Notes: a model not told the origin generated them from the sequence alone. Positions 17,912-25,846 are shown, counted from the first letter of the stretch. The stretch: 64,000 nt of DNA from an uncultured Syntrophobacterales bacterium (GCA_964519455.1 CAZFIU010000022.1:461-64460); one strand, 5' to 3'. Translations and numbers: made by a program.

Positions 17912-18937
17912 CTACGGTTCCTGTTCGCCCCTCGGCCCGCCGAAGGCCGACAAGTGCTCCTTGAGAGTGCGGAACCCGGCTTCGTTCAGCCCCGTCGCGG
18001 CCTCGATCACATCCCAGGTCACCCCGACCCTCAGAAAGCCCTCAACTACCTCCACCTTGCCGCGTTGTGCGCCTTCCGCCAGCCCTTGGCCACGGCCTTC
18101 CTCACGTCCTTGGCTCCGGCCTTCCTCACGGCCTTGGCTCCGGCCTTCCGCTCTACCCTCTTCCAGGAGTTGTTGAGCATATGACATGATCTCGCCTCCC
18201 TGCTCGCGGCCACGGCGCCGCAACGCTTCGTTGAAAGCCAGCGCTCCCGCTTCATCCTGTGTCGCCATCACGTACACCATGAATAGACGAATATAGTTCA
18301 CCCCGCCACCTGAAAACAACGTCGCCAGCAACCTCGCCGCGGCGTCCATCGCCAGACCCACGTTCCGTCCATAGGCCGCCATCATCAACAACTGCGCGAT
18401 GCGCCCCTTGACCCCTCCCTCCACGCCGTCCGGACCGAGACTCGTCTGGTCCACCAGCACGTGCTCGAACCGAGGCACCCACGGCCATCCCCGAACCGCC
18501 GCAGGAAACAGGTCCGCGAACTCCGTCGAGTGCCCCCATCCGCGGCCTCCCTGGTAGAACACCACCGGCACGATGGGATGCAACCCCGGCCGCCCCGCCT
18601 CGTCCCGCAGCCCCGCATCCCAGATCCGGCAGCAATACTTGAGCAACCGGAACCGCATCCATGCGTCCGACGTCGATTGATGCTCGAACAGCAGGTACAG
18701 CCATATCCGCTCTGTGTCCTCCCCATACACCGCCTCGTACAGCAGGTCCGACTCGCTCTCCCGCAGGGCGTCGTCCAGGAACGTTCCCTCCAGCAGGTTC
18801 AGCGTCTCCCAATCCACCCTGTCCCGGAATCCGGCGGGCAAAGCCGCCCGCAACAGGCCGGCGGCTTCCGCCGCATCCGAAAACACCGCGCGGAACAGCC
18901 GGTCGTGGGGATGCTCTACTTCGTGGGCCATGGACAC
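17912..18937 (-). CDS. Rpn-family recombination-promoting nuclease / putative transposase (YhgA-like, PD-(D/E)XK)
   Basis: N-terminus HDRLFRAVFSD...LLYEAVYGEDTERIWLYLLFEHQS is characteristic of Rpn/Transposase_31 proteins. The C-terminus carries imperfect tandem 8-aa repeats (GRAEGRSQGREEGRSQGREEGRGQG). Confidence 0.8.
   Translation of the reverse strand: MSMAHEVEHPHDRLFRAVFSDAAEAAGLLRAALPAGFRDRVDWETLNLLEGTFLDDALRESESDLLYEAVYGEDTERIWLYLLFEHQSTSDAWMRFRLLKYCCRIWDAGLRDEAGRPGLHPIVPVVFYQGGRGWGHSTEFADLFPAAVRGWPWVPRFEHVLVDQTSLGPDGVEGGVKGRIAQLLMMAAYGRNVGLAMDAAARLLATLFSGGGVNYIRLFMVYVMATQDEAGALAFNEALRRRGREQGGEIMSYAQQLLEEGRAEGRSQGREEGRSQGREEGRGQGLAEGAQRGKVEVVEGFLRVGVTWDVIEAATGLNEAGFRTLKEHLSAFGGPRGEQEP
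18084..18155. repeat. Three 24-bp tandem repeats inside the Rpn-family gene (ccttggc(c/t)(a/c)cggccttcctcacg(t/g))
   Basis: Direct repeats are visible in the sequence and encode the octapeptide repeats of the protein. Confidence 0.8.
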
Positions 18938-19405
18938 ACCTCCCGGGTCTGGACAAAGACGGCGAGGATTGTTCGCCGCCTGTCCTATGATATTCGGCCC
19001 TTTCCGGTGAGACTTTAGGCCCAGGCTGGATTGTCTTTCCCCTTATCGACCAGTGCGTTCGATCAGGGGTTCAATTCGGCGACGGGTCCGAGTTGAAATG
19101 TCAAAGGGCGGCCTTGAGGTGCGCTCGTCCGGGGCACGCATTCTCGACCACGTGTTTGAGGTCCGCGATTCGGCACGGAGAGACTGTGGCTCTGAGCCCC
19201 GTCAACCCGATGGACTTCCTGTTCCTCGGGAGATGCTGCTCCGCCACCGCGAAGAAAAGCCATTGGCGGGGACCGCTGTGATTGGCATACCTATCGCGCC
19301 TCTCGTCATGCCATGCAAAAACACAGATATCCGCTGGCCGTCCCGGAGAGTCCACCCATCGACTCCCGTCCCCTCAATCGGGTTTGGAGACAAGCTTTCG
19401 CAGGA

Positions 19406-20020
19406 TCACGGATAGGTGAACGTCGGAGGAAGTACGTTGCCAAGGAATGGCCGTCCGAAGTTGTTGCGGATTGTCAAGGCGGATGTCGGATCACGGCGAA
19501 AACGTGAATCGCCAATCTCCCCCTTCACCTTGATGCCGACGTGCTGCTTGAGCGCCTCCTGCACCACTACCTCCACGTCCTCGATCCGCTGCCCCGGATG
19601 ACAGGTCACTTCCGCCCAGCAGAACCAAGTGCGGTCAAGCATTGCCTTGACCGTTTCCCGACTTGTCTTGTCACCCCGACCCTTGACCATGTCGATCGCG
19701 CTTGAGTTTAAGACTCCTACCGGATCCGCTAGGAAATCAACTACGTTCCTCGGGATAGAGAAACACACAGGGTTCTTAAACCAGGAAATCCGTTGCCCGT
19801 CGCTGTCTCGTTTGCCGGCCCCGTGCACATGTTCGTACCAGCGCCTGCCGATGTCGTCTGACTTACCAACGTAATAGCCCGCGTAGGCGTCGCCGGTGGT
19901 TGCCATCACAAAAATGTAGACACCAGTGCCAAGGTAGGGGCAATACCAGTTCGAATAGGGCTCGGGCTCGATCGCTCCCATCGGGACCGATTTCCAATGT
20001 AGATCATAGGTGCCGGACAT
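19406..20020 (-). CDS. GIY-YIG nuclease family protein
   Basis: Motifs GVYIFVMATTGDAYAGYYVGKSDDIGRRWYEH (GIY ... YVG ... R ... E). The internal start MSGTYDL is chosen; the ORF-track N-terminal extension overlaps the upstream gene and is low complexity. Confidence 0.7.
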   Translation of the reverse strand: MSGTYDLHWKSVPMGAIEPEPYSNWYCPYLGTGVYIFVMATTGDAYAGYYVGKSDDIGRRWYEHVHGAGKRDSDGQRISWFKNPVCFSIPRNVVDFLADPVGVLNSSAIDMVKGRGDKTSRETVKAMLDRTWFCWAEVTCHPGQRIEDVEVVVQEALKQHVGIKVKGEIGDSRFRRDPTSALTIRNNFGRPFLGNVLPPTFTYP

Positions 20021-20097
20021 GTTTATGTTCTCCTGTGCCGCGATCCGTAGTTGGTGGGCTTTACCCGGTTCTGGACCGGACACCCGATCTGCTGTAC

Positions 20098-21096
20098 TCA
20101 CCTGTGAGACGAGTAACCGCGATGGTGTGCGGCGAGCGAAGCGCACATTGCCGCAAGCCGCTGGCGAAGGCTGGGCGGCTCCAGGATTGTCACGCTTTCT
20201 CCCCATGTCACGAGATGCCAACAAATTTCTTCGACGCCTCCCGCCCTGAAACGCACCGTCAGCGAGTCGTCGCTGTTCTCAGTGATGGTCTGGCTTGGAT
20301 GGAATTGAAACGCCTTGGCGTCCTGCGCGGCGTCGGCATCGAAGTGGAGCACCACGTCGAAGGGTTCCTCCTGGAAAGTGCCAAATGAACGCTCGGCGTA
20401 CCGCCTCAAATCGAAAGCCGGGTCGCCTTCGAATGGCTCATCGGTGATCTGCGCCTCGCTGATGTTTCCGAGTCTCCAGAGCCTCGGCTTGTTTCCCTGA
20501 TCGGTTCGTCCCACCAGGAAAGCACGGTTGCCGTAAAGAACCCCATAGGGGCAAACCCGCTGGCGGTCCCGCCGCCCCGTTCCTCGTGAAGAATATCTGA
20601 TATAGATCTTACGGTACGTCGTCACGGCCTCTCGCACGAGCGAAAGCAGGCCCTCTTCGAAGCTCTCCCTAGGGCCGGCCCGCATCGCGAGGCCTTCCGC
20701 CTCCATGAGAGCCTCAAGCGCAGCGTCGAACTCTTCGGAAGAGTGTTGGTGCGACGCAGCCCGCAGTTTGACCACAAGACCGCTCACGCGCTCTGCGAGG
20801 TCGGCACGACCTAGACTGCCAGCCACCGCTTCAAGGTCCGCAAGGTCCTCAGGTGTGATGGAGATAAACGGGTTCAGGGCGCGCGACCGAAGCCGCCAAT
20901 GAATCCGACGGTCGCCACTGTCCGTGTCCACAACCTCCAGCGGCCCAAATGCTGCCTCGACGGCATCACGCATTCGCTCCGCCGTACGTCGACTTACGGA
21001 GAACTCGCCCTGGATGTCGGCGATGGTTACGCCGCGGTGGCTTCCTTGGAGGTAGATGGCAAGGCAAACAAGCTCTACGAGGCGTTCGTGACGCAT
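20098..21096 (-). CDS. WYL-domain transcriptional regulator (HTH - WYL - WCX; YafY/BrxR/CapW-like)
   Basis: N-terminal HTH (LVELVCLAIYLQGSHRGVTIADIQGEFSVSRRTAERMRD), a central WYL-like segment (IYIRYSSRGTGRRDRQRVCPYGVLYGNRAFLVG) and a C-terminal extension. Confidence 0.85.
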   Translation of the reverse strand: MRHERLVELVCLAIYLQGSHRGVTIADIQGEFSVSRRTAERMRDAVEAAFGPLEVVDTDSGDRRIHWRLRSRALNPFISITPEDLADLEAVAGSLGRADLAERVSGLVVKLRAASHQHSSEEFDAALEALMEAEGLAMRAGPRESFEEGLLSLVREAVTTYRKIYIRYSSRGTGRRDRQRVCPYGVLYGNRAFLVGRTDQGNKPRLWRLGNISEAQITDEPFEGDPAFDLRRYAERSFGTFQEEPFDVVLHFDADAAQDAKAFQFHPSQTITENSDDSLTVRFRAGGVEEICWHLVTWGESVTILEPPSLRQRLAAMCASLAAHHRGYSSHR

Positions 21097-21122
21097 TCAT
21101 TCTCGGGGCGGAGGGGGGATTG

Positions 21123-21731
21123 TCACCAACGGTGGAGCCCGCCCCACCCGTGTTTATCAATCTTCCCGTAACGCCAAGCAGGAATACCTTTGGGGCCAGC
21201 GCTGCCGATCAGGAAGAGATACTCCGCATTGCTTGCTTCTCCGCATTGGTTGTTAACTGCAACGTGCATACGACATAGGATGTCGAGTTTCCGTTCGAGC
21301 CACATCCTCCTCGCTTCGATGTTCAACTGGTCTTCGGGGTAATCGTAAAAGACCAACACCTTCAAGGGAGAACGGAACATCAATAGCTTCCACATCTCCG
21401 TTTCCACATCTGCCCCATTCTCGTGCTCAACTAGTACGTGCATACCATCTGGATACACTCCTCCACCGCCAGGACGGAAAGTAGCCGTGTCTTCGTCATA
21501 GAAGACGGTATCCAGCGTGTACCATTCCCTCCCCATCGTCAGAGTTCGCCCGGCAACAGGAGGTAGCCTTACCGACAATCGTTCCAGGAAAGAACCGTTC
21601 CCTGCCAGCATGTATCGCGTCCATTCGCGGTCGGTCTGGTAAGCTTGTCGAATGTCGTCTTCCCGCTGCAAAACGTCGTCTTCCCACTGTTGGCAAAATG
21701 CAATGCAGAACTCTTCGGCAGTAGGCATCAA
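21123..21731 (-). CDS. Hypothetical protein (no confident family; possible nuclease-like core VLVEHEN...E.EMWK)
   Basis: 202-aa ORF tightly packed between the AAA gene and the WYL gene, with no recognisable domain. Confidence 0.55.
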   Translation of the reverse strand: MMPTAEEFCIAFCQQWEDDVLQREDDIRQAYQTDREWTRYMLAGNGSFLERLSVRLPPVAGRTLTMGREWYTLDTVFYDEDTATFRPGGGGVYPDGMHVLVEHENGADVETEMWKLLMFRSPLKVLVFYDYPEDQLNIEARRMWLERKLDILCRMHVAVNNQCGEASNAEYLFLIGSAGPKGIPAWRYGKIDKHGWGGLHRW

Positions 21732-21780
21732 CTAAGTCCTCCGTCGTCAATCCGTGAAGATGAAACAGTTGGTAGCACAT

Positions 21781-23868
21781 CTACACGGCAAAACCTATTC
21801 TCTGCGGGTAGGCTGACTTGGCTTCACATTCCTCCCGCAACATTTCCACCACGGCTTTCGGGCGTCTGCGGGAGCCCAGAATCTCCGCCTTTCGGCGCAC
21901 GAGGGCAAAGTCACCCAGTGTCAGGGTGTGAAAACTCGCAATGTCCTCCGGAGGCTCCATCCCCAAGTAAACACGGAAAGCCGCCCTGGCCTGCTCGGAC
22001 GACAGGTAGTCAAGCGCAATCTTGAAGGTGAATCGCCGCAAAGTCGCCGGGTCGAGACGCGCTCCGAAGTTGGTCGTGCAAGCAACCGGGAAGGGATGGC
22101 TCTCCATCCAAGTCAGCATCTCGTTGACTTGGCTCACCTCCCAGTGCCATTCGGCGAGGCGCCGGTCGGCCAGCAGTGAATCGGCTTCGTCGAAGACGAG
22201 GAACGCCTCGGCGTCGCGGGCCTCGGCAAAGGCTTTGGCGATGTTCGTCTCCGTTCCACCGACCCACATCGACATCAGGTCGGATGCACGCTTCTGCACG
22301 ACTTCGAGGCCGAGCCGGCCGGCGAGATACCGGACATATGCGCTCTTTCCCGTGCCCGACGGCCCTTGAAGACACAGCGAGAAGCTCCGAGCACCGCTGG
22401 CAACGAGGCAGTCTGCGAGTTGCACCGGGTCCATGTCGGCGCGGATCAGTGCTGGATCGTACTTGTCTGGTGTCCGTTGACTTGTCGGAGTATCGCCTGA
22501 CAGCACCCGAGCGAGTCCGCGCACGCCGCGATGCACGTCGGCCACGGTCCGGCCACCCATTCCCGCGGCCGCGGTGACGCCGGAAGCCACTCCCGGCGTT
22601 ACGTCAAATTCTCGTGCGAGGGCGCGGGCATCTTCCGGGTCCGCCTTGATGCCGTGGTGCGTCAACTGTCGCACCCAGATGCGTTCCCGTACCTTGGGAG
22701 GCGGTTGACGCAGTTCCAGGGCGAACATCATGCGGCGCAAGATGACGGGACTGGTGGAACGGGCGGCGTTCGATGTCCACAGGATTGGCACCGGCGTCTG
22801 CTCCAGTAGCCTATTCATGAACACTTTCGAGCCTTCAGCCGAACGCTCGGGGACACGGCGCGGCCCCAACCATGCCGCAAGGACCTCCCCCTGTCTGGAG
22901 AGCAAATCCTCCATCTCGTCGAAGAGCAGGATCGAGCGCCGGTCTCCGGCCAGCAAGCCTTGAGCGAGCCGGAGATCCTGTATCCGCTCGCGACGGGAAG
23001 GTTCGTCGCCCGTGGCATCCGATTCTCCCACGACGTAGAGCGGAGCTGCCAGCCGCGAGGCCAAGGTCCGGCAGAACTCCGTCTTGCCCGTGCCGGGCGG
23101 CCCATAGATGAGCACATTGACACCCTTCTGGCCGCTCCGTAACGCTCCGCTCAAGATCCGTGCGAGATGGTCCCGATCGCCGGCGACATGGTCGAAATCG
23201 GACCAGAGCAGCTCGCCAGGGCCGGCCTCGTCAAGTAACAGGCGCTGCACGTTGGCGTCATGCTCGTTCGGAACCCAGTGCAATCGAGTCAACCGGTCGA
23301 TAGTCGCCAAGTCGCCATCGTTGTCGATGGATACCAACCCCGATGTTATGAGGGGCGCGTCGGGAGCCAAGCGGCGATGGACCGTGCCGGCCGACAGACC
23401 GAGCAAGCGTGGGAAAAGCGGGTTGTTCATTCCGAAGCCGTTTCCCCTCCAGTACGGACTCTCGCAAATCGCGTCGACCATCAACGCCACAGGTGATCCG
23501 GTACGGTGTCGCAGCAATAACTCCAGGATCGCGGTATCGGTCCGGGAAAGACGCGTAGCCTTTGCGAGACGACGGAGGCGCCTCGCGGTCCGATCCGGGC
23601 GTACGTGTTGAGCCGCAAGCAAGGCGCCTTTGGAAGCCTCTCCCACGCGCTGCCACACCCGCGCCGGGAGATCGTAGTCTCGCAACCCTCGTTCCAATGC
23701 AACTTGGGCTTCATCGTCCTCTCGCAGCAAGTACGGAAGACCCAGTTGGTCCTCATTCTCTCCTAGCCACAGCACCAGGTCCTTGGCCTGCTGGTCGCGG
23801 CACTGGAGGTGCGGAACGACGTTCGACAGGTAGAAGAGGATGAGACGGCGTTCGTATGCAGACAGCAT
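21781..23868 (-). CDS. Tandem classic-AAA+ ATPase (N-terminal roughly 240-aa unknown domain followed by two AAA modules)
   Basis: First module: Walker A VLIYGPPGTGKTE, Walker B ILLFDEMEDLL, sensor-1 TSN. Second module: Walker A LQGPSGTGKSA, SMWVGGTETNIAKAF, Walker B FLVFDEADSLL, sensor-1 CTTN and the arginine-finger region LDPATLRRFTF. The true start MLSAYERRL is at 23866-23868, preceded by a G-rich RBS. The ORF-track extension to 25083 is an antisense artefact over the LLM gene. Confidence 0.8.
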   Translation of the reverse strand: MLSAYERRLILFYLSNVVPHLQCRDQQAKDLVLWLGENEDQLGLPYLLREDDEAQVALERGLRDYDLPARVWQRVGEASKGALLAAQHVRPDRTARRLRRLAKATRLSRTDTAILELLLRHRTGSPVALMVDAICESPYWRGNGFGMNNPLFPRLLGLSAGTVHRRLAPDAPLITSGLVSIDNDGDLATIDRLTRLHWVPNEHDANVQRLLLDEAGPGELLWSDFDHVAGDRDHLARILSGALRSGQKGVNVLIYGPPGTGKTEFCRTLASRLAAPLYVVGESDATGDEPSRRERIQDLRLAQGLLAGDRRSILLFDEMEDLLSRQGEVLAAWLGPRRVPERSAEGSKVFMNRLLEQTPVPILWTSNAARSTSPVILRRMMFALELRQPPPKVRERIWVRQLTHHGIKADPEDARALAREFDVTPGVASGVTAAAGMGGRTVADVHRGVRGLARVLSGDTPTSQRTPDKYDPALIRADMDPVQLADCLVASGARSFSLCLQGPSGTGKSAYVRYLAGRLGLEVVQKRASDLMSMWVGGTETNIAKAFAEARDAEAFLVFDEADSLLADRRLAEWHWEVSQVNEMLTWMESHPFPVACTTNFGARLDPATLRRFTFKIALDYLSSEQARAAFRVYLGMEPPEDIASFHTLTLGDFALVRRKAEILGSRRRPKAVVEMLREECEAKSAYPQRIGFAV

Positions 23869-23984
23869 GACAACCCCCCATTTGTGACGTCCATGGGGGA
23901 CCGTAGCGTGAATGTGCGTCAGTTTCGGACGTACCCGGCTGTCCTCGACGCAGATTTTTCTGGAAGTGGCGAGAGGCGCGGTCC

Positions 23985-24992: not shown

Positions 24993-25167
24993 GGTGAACT
25001 CCTGTGGCGGCCGCGGGGGGAAGGTCCTCGTTCCAGGACATTGGCGTCAGGACATCCCGCCCAATTCCCGCGGCATGCCTCAAGGCGCATTGTCAGCCGC
25101 AAGTTCGAGACGTGAACGAACGGGGATCGGCGTAATCCGCCGTCTCCGCGACTTGCAGGCGGCGACT

Positions 25168-25482
25168 TCACGCTCGCCTCGTACCGGACAACCGCTCCGC
25201 GGTAGTCCGCTCCCGGCGCGCTTGCGCCAACTCATAGCTCGCCTGCATTCGCATCCAATGCTCCGCCGTGCCCCAACCTATTTCCTCCAGCGCCAGCGCC
25301 ATGTTCGCGGACACGCCCGCCTTGCCGTTGAGCAGGCGCGAGAGCGTCCCGCGTTCACAGCCCAGGCGGGCCGCCGTCTCAGTAACATTCCAGCCGGTTT
25401 CTTCCATGCTCTCGCGGATCAGGTCGCCCAAATGCGGCGGGTTCAGCATGGCGCCTACACGTTCGGCCTGGTGGTCGCTCAT
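25168..25482 (-). CDS. higA: HigA-family antitoxin (XRE-type HTH)
   Basis: 104 aa with HTH TETAARLGCERGTLSRLLNGKAGVS. It follows the toxin gene on the same strand, which is the characteristic Hig order (toxin first). Confidence 0.8.
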   Translation of the reverse strand: MSDHQAERVGAMLNPPHLGDLIRESMEETGWNVTETAARLGCERGTLSRLLNGKAGVSANMALALEEIGWGTAEHWMRMQASYELAQARRERTTAERLSGTRRA

Positions 25483-25501
25483 CGTCCTTGCTCCCTTCCT
25501 G

Positions 25502-25774
25502 TCAGTGATAGTCGACGAGGTCCAGGTCTACGACTTCGCCGTCCACGAACCTGCAGACGACGCGCCAGTTACCGGATACGCGAACACTCCACTGACCCGC
25601 CCTGTCTCCCTTCAAAGGATGTAACCGAAAACCGGGTGCGTCAGCGCTGCGTGGGTGCGTCGCCTCTTGCAGCCGGAACAGGATGCGCCGAAGTCGTGGC
25701 ACCAGACTGGCGGGGAGCTGAGCCGGGTCGTCCCGCTCGTGCAGTGCCCGCAAGCCCTTGTGCCGGATCTTCAT
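25502..25774 (-). CDS. higB: HigB-like RelE/ParE-superfamily toxin
   Basis: 90 aa (MKIRHKGLRALHERDD...HPLKGDRAGQWSVRVSGNWRVVCRFVDGEVVDLDLVDYH), the typical plasmid-killer HigB signature. Confidence 0.8.
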   Translation of the reverse strand: MKIRHKGLRALHERDDPAQLPASLVPRLRRILFRLQEATHPRSADAPGFRLHPLKGDRAGQWSVRVSGNWRVVCRFVDGEVVDLDLVDYH

Positions 25775-25846
25775 CTACCGACTGTAGCGCGGCGCGTTAC
25801 GCGCCGCAAGGAATTCGCCTTGGACTCAACGCTTGATTCCCGTTCT

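Follow-up and report, generated by a model that had tools for sequence, protein, structure and literature searches.

A mobile gene pair encoding a tandem AAA ATPase and a DriD-type WYL regulator, with interchangeable nuclease neighbors, as a candidate single-stranded-DNA-responsive cassette

The cluster described here lies in a 64,000-nucleotide stretch of DNA (the window) from an uncultured Syntrophobacterales bacterium (GCA_964519455.1, CAZFIU010000022.1:461-64460). It consists of four minus-strand genes that encode, in order, a tandem AAA ATPase (AAA), a family-less protein of 202 amino acids (aa) (the orphan), a winged helix-turn-helix (wHTH)-WYL-WCX regulator (WYL) and a small protein with a predicted GIY-YIG fold (GIY). 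The gaps between them are 49-52 nt (AAA/orphan), 26 nt (orphan/WYL) and 77 nt (WYL/GIY), in agreement with the tight spacing given in a preliminary description of the locus. The family assignments made there also stand: Pfam recognizes two AAA modules (PF00004, 7.7e-31) in the first protein and WYL plus WCX in the third, leaves the 202-aa protein without a family, and the fourth protein retains an intact GIY-YIG motif. The low-GC segment noted in that description is borne out quantitatively, with a GC of 0.578 for 18938-21780, compared with 0.665 +/- 0.015 (minimum 0.633) for non-overlapping segments of the same size (z = -5.9), the lowest value across the 64 kb. By gene, GC is 0.532 in the orphan, 0.564 in GIY, 0.611 in WYL and 0.628 in AAA, and the dip is centered on the orphan and GIY genes.

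A scan of one genome per species detected at least 573 relatives of the AAA protein, and the best 79 loci were examined with 8-kb flanks. Gene calls were GC3-guided, a heuristic under which some WYL genes were miscalled as antisense open reading frames (cluster c12), and WYL genes were counted from six-frame phmmer searches with the window proteins rather than from the gene calls. Of the 79 loci, 44 have a WYL orthologue immediately after AAA on the same strand, 13 have one downstream with an insert and two have one divergently upstream (about 59/79 together). The 202-aa protein is present in one of these loci (L065; L-numbers designate related loci), a GIY-like protein in three and the neighboring Rpn protein in one close relative. 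Since WYL linkage is common among the related loci and the orphan, GIY and Rpn genes are rare, the conserved unit is AAA plus WYL rather than a fixed four-gene system. The identity matrices of the AAA and WYL proteins correlate with a Mantel r of 0.86, a value reached in 0/999 permutations. The co-occurrence of all four genes, raised as a question in the preliminary description, holds in part: AAA and WYL adjoin in most loci and the same four-gene order is found in L109 and L110, but the orphan and GIY genes are interchangeable.

The 79 loci come from metagenome-assembled Binatia, Thermodesulfobacteriota, Latescibacterota, Acidobacteriota, Gemmatimonadota, Nitrospirales, Alphaproteobacteria and Gammaproteobacteria, and several genomes hold two or three AAA copies. 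Many of the host genomes may be sponge-symbiont bins, an impression taken loosely from their names. The AAA-WYL pair is also carried by plasmids of cultured Alphaproteobacteria (Fuscovulum blasticum 28/5 pRsa, with AAA B6K69_RS17550 and WYL RS17555; Leisingera thetidis pBMJM1_5; Novosphingobium humi KACC 19094; and Azospirillum brasilense) and by 6/11 related IMG/VR viral contigs. More than 2400 homologous clusters make up the AAA family, many of them 57-89% identical and about 695 aa long; in PHROGs the family is annotated only as "ATPase".

Residues 1-315 of the WYL protein align with solved structures of Caulobacter DriD (8tp8 and 9pfq; phmmer, E = 9e-59, 203 bits), with PafC scoring 33 bits. 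A PDB-wide phmmer search with the WYL protein at E <= 0.01 returned the DriD entries and PafC, and no other WYL structure. Structures of BrxR and CapW are in the PDB. With DriD and PafC alone as structural matches, a regulator of the BrxR/CapW type, the earlier proposal, was rejected; the DriD homology and the cognate operator before the AAA gene point to a DNA-damage activator. A published phylogeny places the CapW/BrxR repressors in a clade apart from DriD (PMC12392091). DriD has been described for Caulobacteraceae (PMC12392091); in Caulobacter it is a DNA-damage activator that responds to single-stranded DNA (ssDNA) (PMC9186387) and switches on the nuclease gene bapE, recJ and dnaG. The recognition helix RRTAERMRDAV is the same in the WYL protein and DriD, and five of seven ssDNA-contact residues are identical (Y168, R178, K202, R204 and W206; positions from PMC9186387). 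Judged by its sequence, the WYL protein is closely homologous to Caulobacter DriD and of the DNA-damage-activator type, and we infer that ssDNA would activate it.

The published DriD box is CGAC-N7-GTCG (PMC9186387, PMC12392091). Its sole match within the window is TACGTCCGAAACTGACGCA, upstream of the AAA gene (Table 1), which agrees at 15/20 positions with the DriD site of Caulobacter didA, ATACGTCCGTTTCTGGCGCA (site from PMC9186387). In the related loci the box lies at a fixed distance of about 60-70 nt before the AAA start, and its presence tracks that of the regulator: it is present in 54 loci with an orthologous WYL gene and absent from two, and present in seven loci without one and absent from 13 (54/56 vs 7/20, Fisher p = 4e-8), with a background of 6 matches per 1.25 Mb. 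The box also precedes the pair on the Fuscovulum plasmid (L090) and on viral/proviral contigs. In a box-anchored alignment of about 60 loci, the TAnnnT columns of the -10-like hexamer are conserved at 92%, 100% and 97%. DriD activates its Caulobacter promoters by standing in for the -35 contact, and three of these promoters, didA, bapE and CCNA_03891, have been solved with DriD and RNA polymerase (PMC13004042). By our own reading of the sequences in PMC13004042, the spacing of 9 nt between box and hexamer is the same as that between the box and CAATCT, CAAGGT and CAAGCC in those promoters. Internal terminators that would split the cluster were considered and rejected, the terminator-like sites (5 found, 4.7 expected from shuffles) being at shuffle expectation; this and the short intergenic gaps accord with a single transcription unit.

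Between the hexamer and the AAA start codon, the predicted transcript can form a hairpin with a minimum-free-energy fold of -12.6 kcal/mol. Pairing of an anti-Shine-Dalgarno with the Shine-Dalgarno sequence is found in 48/52 loci, compared with 29.9 +/- 3.4 (maximum 40) when the 5' part is shuffled (200 shuffles). The arms covary among loci, for example CTCTCC/GGAGAG, CCCTCATT/AATGAGG and TCTTCAG/CTGAAGA. Rfam holds no family that matches the hairpin, which looks like a conserved translational brake or could be an RNA thermometer-like element. The cassette decays in some genomes: in L088 (1917-5246) two inserted DDE transposase genes separate AAA from its DriD-box promoter and truncate the ATPase at its N-terminus, and in L089 the AAA gene is broken into 280-aa and 377-aa pieces.

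Table 1. Positions of the cluster, its promoter elements and adjoining features in the window
Feature	Position	Strand	Description
DriD-type operator	23915-23933	minus	TACGTCCGAAACTGACGCA; pseudo-palindrome at the -35 position, about 46 nt upstream of the AAA start codon
-10-like hexamer	23900-23905	minus	TACGGT, 9 nt downstream of the operator
Leader hairpin	23875-23899	minus	CCCCCAT ... ATGGGGG; predicted transcript start paired with the AAA Shine-Dalgarno region
AAA gene	21781-23868	minus	695 aa; tandem AAA ATPase
AAA N-domain	23179-23868	minus	aa 1-230; family-specific
AAA D1	Walker A 23080-23103	minus	aa ~231-470
AAA D2	Walker A 22342-22365	minus	aa ~471-695; pore loop MWVGGTE, p97-like
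Orphan gene (cargo gene 1)	21123-21731	minus	202 aa from TTG; predicted restriction-endonuclease-fold nuclease
WYL gene	20098-21096	minus	332 aa; predicted DriD-type wHTH-WYL-WCX transcription activator
GIY gene (cargo gene 2)	19406-20020	minus	204 aa; predicted GIY-YIG-fold nuclease, rare family
Right-hand junction of the fast-diverging segment	19361-19374		identity drop versus L005
Rpn/Transposase_31 gene	17912-18937		neighbor, downstream of the cluster

In the AAA protein, the Walker A, Walker B, sensor-1 and Arg-finger residues of both modules are invariant among 20 homologues, the invariant columns including GPPGTGKT, DEMED, GPxGxGKS, FDEADS, TTN, RRF and WVG. A PDB search gave Cdc48, p97 and VAT as the closest solved relatives, with both modules aligned. 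Because the motifs are intact in both modules and the nearest solved proteins are Cdc48, p97 and VAT, the protein is predicted to be a type II, classic-clade, Cdc48-like unfoldase with two catalytically complete modules. Orthology to CDC48, FtsH, PAN, IetA/IteA or EccA was rejected, as the scores fall far under the curated cut-offs (53 bits against a cut-off of 803 for TIGR01243, CDC48; 90.7 bits against 510 for NF042959, IetA/IteA, with D2 alone matching). Among the PADLOC models, D2 resembles the defense ATPase IetA most, and there are weak TRIP13 matches. The N-domain was seen solely at the N-terminus of AAA family proteins (226 representatives) and in no other architecture, with weak winged-helix hints from the Pfam family WHD (PF22977, E = 0.005-0.02). 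Further AAA homologues are encoded on the IMG/VR contigs L104-L107 (462-561 kb; 38% identical) and L108 (31%), where neither a WYL gene nor a DriD box was found; they are either jumbo-phage versions or mis-binned cellular DNA.

The 202-aa orphan, for which public gene calls use the ATG at 21728 and give 201 aa, had no match in Pfam, NCBIfam, PADLOC, PHROGs or PDB sequence searches, and only the fold search was informative. The predicted structure has a restriction-endonuclease-like alpha/beta core, and the protein is predicted to be a BamHI/NucC-like PD-(D/E)XK nuclease; D74, E102-x-E104, E112 and K115 are invariant in its family and are candidates for catalytic residues of the D...(D/E)xK or BamHI-type D...ExE kind. 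The GIY protein scores 20.8 bits against Pfam GIY-YIG, below the gathering cut-off of 22.6, and its modeled structure suggests a GIY-YIG fold that keeps the GIY and YIG tyrosines, the catalytic Arg and the metal-binding Glu; the homing endonuclease I-TevI is among its fold matches. Both families are rare, comprising 41 (orphan) and 18 (GIY) clusters. In the window, L065, L087-L089, L109 and L110, the orphan gene separates AAA from WYL; its more distant homologues are solitary genes in unrelated surroundings. The GIY gene comes after WYL in four cases (the window, L005, L109 and L110), separates AAA from WYL in L093, directly follows AAA in L006, and is found within an integrative and conjugative element in L094.

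In other loci the slot between AAA and WYL holds Mrr_cat nucleases (L014, L015), PDDEXK_4 nucleases (L018, L070) or MORN-repeat proteins. Recurrent genes downstream of the pair encode DUF2779 proteins, AddAB-like helicase-nuclease pairs, ADP-ribosylglycohydrolases and HEPN proteins, and further neighbors encode Ogt, a DEDDh exonuclease, glyoxalase/bleomycin-resistance proteins, DnaB, integrases, toxin-antitoxin pairs and an MmeI-type restriction-modification protein. The preliminary description named GIY-YIG nucleases among the recurrent effectors of defense systems, and several nuclease families do recur beside the pair in the related loci.

Several neighborhoods merit separate mention. In L078 (10244-12230) the genes for an AAA_21/AbiEii-type (OLD/ABC-like) ATPase and its 249-aa partner occupy the AAA-WYL slot, a type of gene pair known from abortive-infection systems. 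ADP-ribosylglycohydrolase genes directly follow AAA or the AAA-WYL pair in L007, L009, L012, L024, L034 and L035, on the plasmids L090 and L091 and on the viral contig L103; they are sometimes fused to an inositol-monophosphatase domain, and some of these loci have neither the WYL regulator nor the DriD box. These arrangements hint that the ATPase is tied to reversal of ADP-ribosylation. An AddAB-like pair, comprising a PD-(D/E)XK protein of ~910 aa and a UvrD-family helicase-nuclease of ~1140 aa, follows AAA-WYL in L041, L058, L059, L071 and L082 and on the plasmids L090-L092, and in the metagenome-assembled loci it is usually preceded by a conserved family-less 180-aa protein (cluster c21). 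The position of an end-processing enzyme that makes ssDNA beside an ssDNA sensor may be no coincidence. Lone homologues of the 202-aa nuclease in L084 (7001-8911) and L086 (5271-7588) also adjoin luciferase-like monooxygenase genes, which could be chance, the monooxygenase family being abundant in those genomes, or could mark remnants of decayed cassettes.

The upstream neighbors of the window cluster are a luciferase-like monooxygenase, a HigBA pair and a molybdenum hydroxylase. In the Binatia-like clade (at least six contigs) the block is always flanked by the luciferase-like monooxygenase on one side and a flavoprotein on the other. Nucleotide identity between the window and L005 is 95-97% in the backbone (19374 down to 14869), 87% in AAA, 86.5% in WYL and 66% in GIY, and the orphan is absent from L005. 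At the amino-acid level, the window and L109 share 92.5% in the monooxygenase, 91.7% in Rpn, 90% in GIY, 83% in WYL, 68% in AAA and 54% in the orphan. Divergence of the AAA protein is concentrated in the N-domain (46-59% identity, vs 72-78% in the ATPase modules). Content and sequence of the island turn over far faster than the chromosomal backbone, and this divergence, together with the adjacency of the genes and their shared order in L109 and L110, upholds the earlier view of functionally linked genes acquired horizontally. A defined mobile element with ends was rejected: neither a tRNA nor an Rfam family was found around the island, nor any meaningful repeat, direct or inverted, flanking it.

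At the right-hand junction, between the GIY and Rpn genes, L005, L109 and L110 have two further genes, one of them antitoxin-like with an HTH (143-145 aa) and the other without a known family (184 aa in L109 and L110). The corresponding interval of the window measures just 468 bp and therefore represents a deletion or an alternative allele. The Rpn protein matches PF04754 (131 bits) and TIGR01784 (64.8 bits), and three tandem 24-nt repeats in its gene (18071-18149) give its C-terminal part a GREEGRSQ-type repeat. This gene was seen beside the cassette in the closest relatives only (L005, L109 and L110); it belongs to the lineage backbone and not to the module. On the other side, the HigBA pair (25005-25846; HigB 25502-25774, HigA 25168-25482) lies between the molybdenum hydroxylase and the monooxygenase. 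L087, L093 and L109 have about 230-290 nt of intergenic DNA at this position, so HigBA is a separate insertion in the window genome.

We interpret the cluster, with a probability of about 0.55, as one unit of a mobile, ssDNA-responsive AAA-DriD cassette whose physiological benefit would be a damage-inducible DNA-processing response with a constant unfoldase and variable nucleases. In this model, ssDNA that accumulates through DNA damage, or while incoming DNA is replicated or processed, would bind the WYL/WCX pocket, and the freed winged-helix domains would then occupy the operator that replaces the -35 element before the AAA gene and recruit RNA polymerase to its promoter. The transcript would span AAA, the 202-aa nuclease gene, the activator gene and probably the GIY-YIG nuclease gene. 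Because the regulator gene would lie in the same transcription unit, the activator would amplify its own synthesis, a positive feedback, and the leader hairpin, by burying the ribosome-binding site, may add a translational brake on AAA. The constant output would be a double-ring Cdc48-like unfoldase whose fast-evolving N-domain presumably picks the substrate; the variable outputs would be small nucleases encoded in two slots, namely the AAA-WYL interval and the position that follows WYL. The unfoldase might act on DNA-bound proteins, stripping or remodeling them, or on the activator complex, and the nucleases would cut DNA. The regulatory logic is the best-supported part of this interpretation. 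The preliminary description offered a candidate "defence or stress module"; the stress option fits better and gains a concrete trigger and promoter, whereas defense fits less well.

Several observations weigh against a damage response of this kind. Mobility, multiple copies and divergence (68% identity in AAA and 54% in the orphan, compared with about 92% in the backbone) suit a conflict system better than repair. The two remaining ssDNA contacts are changed in the WYL protein, Y192 to F and S172 to G, and ssDNA binding and activation would be carried over from a homologue whose sequence identity is modest (E = 9e-59). In Caulobacter, driD is not self-regulating and has no AAA neighbor, so that the link to the ATPase is without experimental precedent; the same AAA gene was looked for beside Caulobacter driD and rejected, the divergent operon there consisting of an unknown protein and a TonB-dependent receptor. 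The listed nuclease families are found within 6 kb downstream in 22/63 loci with full flanks and upstream in 7/63, a contrast that is biased because the families were picked from downstream genes. The cargo is partly mere neighborhood, since many loci have the genes that follow the pair on the opposite strand. The neighborhood statistics also rest on heuristic gene calls. Within the window cluster, a promoter-like site lies directly upstream of the WYL gene, and co-transcription of the GIY gene is assumed.

A second reading, to which we give lesser though appreciable weight, is a new anti-phage or anti-plasmid defense, in which invader ssDNA would trigger the activator, the AAA protein and plug-in nucleases would act as effectors through abortive infection or invader degradation, and DNA damage would be an incidental trigger. 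It accords with the patchy spread across phyla, the two to three copies in some genomes, the presence on plasmids and proviral contigs, and the low-GC island, whose divergence greatly outpaces that of the backbone and is strongest in the AAA N-domain. The cargo is swappable and effector-like (NucC/BamHI-like, GIY-YIG, Mrr, PDDEXK_4, HEPN, ADP-ribosylglycohydrolase and AbiEii-like ATPase), D2 is closest to IetA among the PADLOC models, and toxin-antitoxin pairs, integrases and the MmeI-type restriction-modification gene lie nearby. There is also a precedent in DdaA of Moraxellaceae, a DriD-related WYL activator of the damage response that additionally controls CRISPR, restriction-modification and Zorya (PMC12392091). 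However, the regulator groups with DriD and not with the defense-associated repressors CapW and BrxR, and several neighbors belong to classical DNA repair (Ogt, AddAB-like genes and an exonuclease). PADLOC matched no system to the four window proteins, and neither it nor the curated-family cut-offs yield a named one, as already reported in the preliminary description. Among 150 downstream neighbors of the related loci, PADLOC gave only a handful of scattered candidates (PDC-S26 four times and mad8 four times), on which a classical defense island was rejected.

The choice between the two sets DriD kinship, repair-type neighbors and sparse PADLOC matches, which favor a damage response, against mobility, multiple copies, a hypervariable N-domain and effector-like cargo, which favor a conflict system. 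The two are not exclusive, because a related WYL activator controls both kinds of genes (PMC12392091). We advance only tentatively the broader proposition that AAA-DriD cassettes are a widespread mobile immune or abortive-response family, in which a DriD-type sensor would respond to ssDNA from invading or damaged DNA and turn on a Cdc48-like unfoldase, the hypervariable N-domain of the unfoldase would recognize a target protein, and a plug-in nuclease would be the effector. If true, it would be the first bacterial defense built on a p97-like segregase and the first mobile, self-amplifying DriD switch.

Cargo dynamics bear on a further possibility, that AAA plus WYL alone is functional and the 202-aa and GIY genes are selfish, homing-endonuclease-like inserts in the intergenic gaps of a shared, often multi-copy operon. 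Both cargo genes encode predicted small nucleases of rare, patchy families (41 and 18 clusters), have the lowest GC of the island, and are each found alone in unrelated contexts, including the integrative and conjugative element; close relatives at the same site vary in cargo presence, with swapped slots (L005, L093 and L109), and GIY-YIG is a classic homing-endonuclease fold, I-TevI being among the matches. We nevertheless consider this unlikely: at least six nuclease families recur in or beside the operon across phyla, which looks more like functional recruitment than chance parasitism, and L109 and L110 preserve the gene order of the window (AAA, orphan, WYL, GIY) although their AAA proteins are only 68% identical to that of the window.

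The ATPase could instead be a regulatory partner of WYL, an unfoldase that takes apart or resets the DriD-like dimer bound to ssDNA, so that the pair would be a portable damage-responsive switch for adjoining genes. The idea draws on analogues, namely the resetting of HORMA proteins by TRIP13/Cap6 in CBASS and the removal of PafBC by the Mpa-proteasome. PafBC of actinobacteria, an ssDNA-activated WYL-type damage activator, is linked to the Pup-proteasome AAA ATPase. AAA and WYL are tightly linked and co-evolving while all else is variable, a regulator within its own induced operon would imply a positive feedback needing an off-switch, and PADLOC gave the weak TRIP13 matches. We rate this reading as rather improbable, however, given that about 11-20 loci have AAA without an orthologous WYL gene, some of them paired with ADP-ribosylglycohydrolase (L007, L009, L012, L024, L034 and L035), so that the ATPase has a role apart from the regulator. 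The operator, moreover, stands before the AAA gene and not before the cargo, and the downstream genes are often on the opposite strand.

A housekeeping chaperone or protease-associated ATPase with conserved synteny, in a chance neighborhood, would suit the constant monooxygenase/flavoprotein flanks of the Binatia-like clade (at least six contigs), but it is effectively refuted by the distribution and divergence data, the protein being patchy, multi-copy, on plasmids and proviruses, 68% identical where backbone proteins are about 92%, far below all NCBIfam equivalog cut-offs (FtsH, CDC48, PAN and IteA) and preceded by a dedicated conserved operator.

Literature searches yielded nothing relevant on AAA/WYL or AAA/DriD pairing, nor on WYL with ADP-ribosylglycohydrolase, and no paper was found that ties DriD or another WYL regulator to this ATPase. 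The DriD sensor family is known; its conserved partnership with an AAA ATPase and interchangeable nucleases across phyla appears to be new, no description having been found. DriD has hitherto been Caulobacter-centered, with a small chromosomal regulon, and here the same operator and promoter geometry is found in a portable two-gene core spread over at least eight phylum-level groups, plus plasmids and proviruses. Two small nuclease families gain a fold-level annotation, and the loci offer a compact, sequence-defined promoter/activator pair, predicted to be ssDNA-inducible, with many natural variants. The findings open the questions of what role a p97-like unfoldase plays in a bacterial ssDNA response, why non-homologous nucleases and ADP-ribosylglycohydrolases are repeatedly recruited to it, and whether a damage activator can serve as an infection sensor.

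Compared with known systems, the AAA protein shares with Cdc48, p97 and VAT the two tandem classic AAA modules, the full Walker, sensor and Arg-finger set and a D2 pore loop of the form MWVGG (aromatic-hydrophobic-Gly), but its N-domain is unrelated by sequence to that of Cdc48 and restricted to its own family. With IetAS (Gao_Iet) it shares the classic-clade ATPase, IetA/IteA being the best PADLOC/NCBIfam match of D2 (~90 bits); IetA, however, has one module and about 370 aa where the window protein has two modules, and no protease gene corresponding to the IetS serine-protease partner was found in the window cluster. PafBC differs in being a heterodimer, Mpa is a single-module AAA protein with OB domains, and the window cluster has no Pup, Dop or proteasome gene. 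The CapW and BrxR operons (CBASS, BREX) resemble the cassette in placing an ssDNA-sensing wHTH-WYL-WCX regulator beside variable, horizontally mobile cargo, but CapW and BrxR are repressors, and PADLOC identified no CBASS, BREX or other system in the four proteins of the cluster. DdaA is likewise a DriD-related WYL activator that couples the DNA-damage response to nuclease-based defense genes, but it belongs to another WYL clade, recognizes the motif CGWCA-N5-TGWCG and is a chromosomal master regulator rather than a compact mobile cassette. Caulobacter DriD itself has the same architecture, full-length homology to the window regulator, the same pseudo-palindromic operator (CGAC/CGTC-N7-GACG) overlapping the -35 position at 9 nt from the -10, and a nuclease (bapE) among its outputs. 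In contrast to Caulobacter DriD, the levels of which are constant, the window regulator is encoded inside its predicted target operon; the target is a tandem AAA+ ATPase, missing from the described DriD regulon, and the module is mobile and spread over many phyla.

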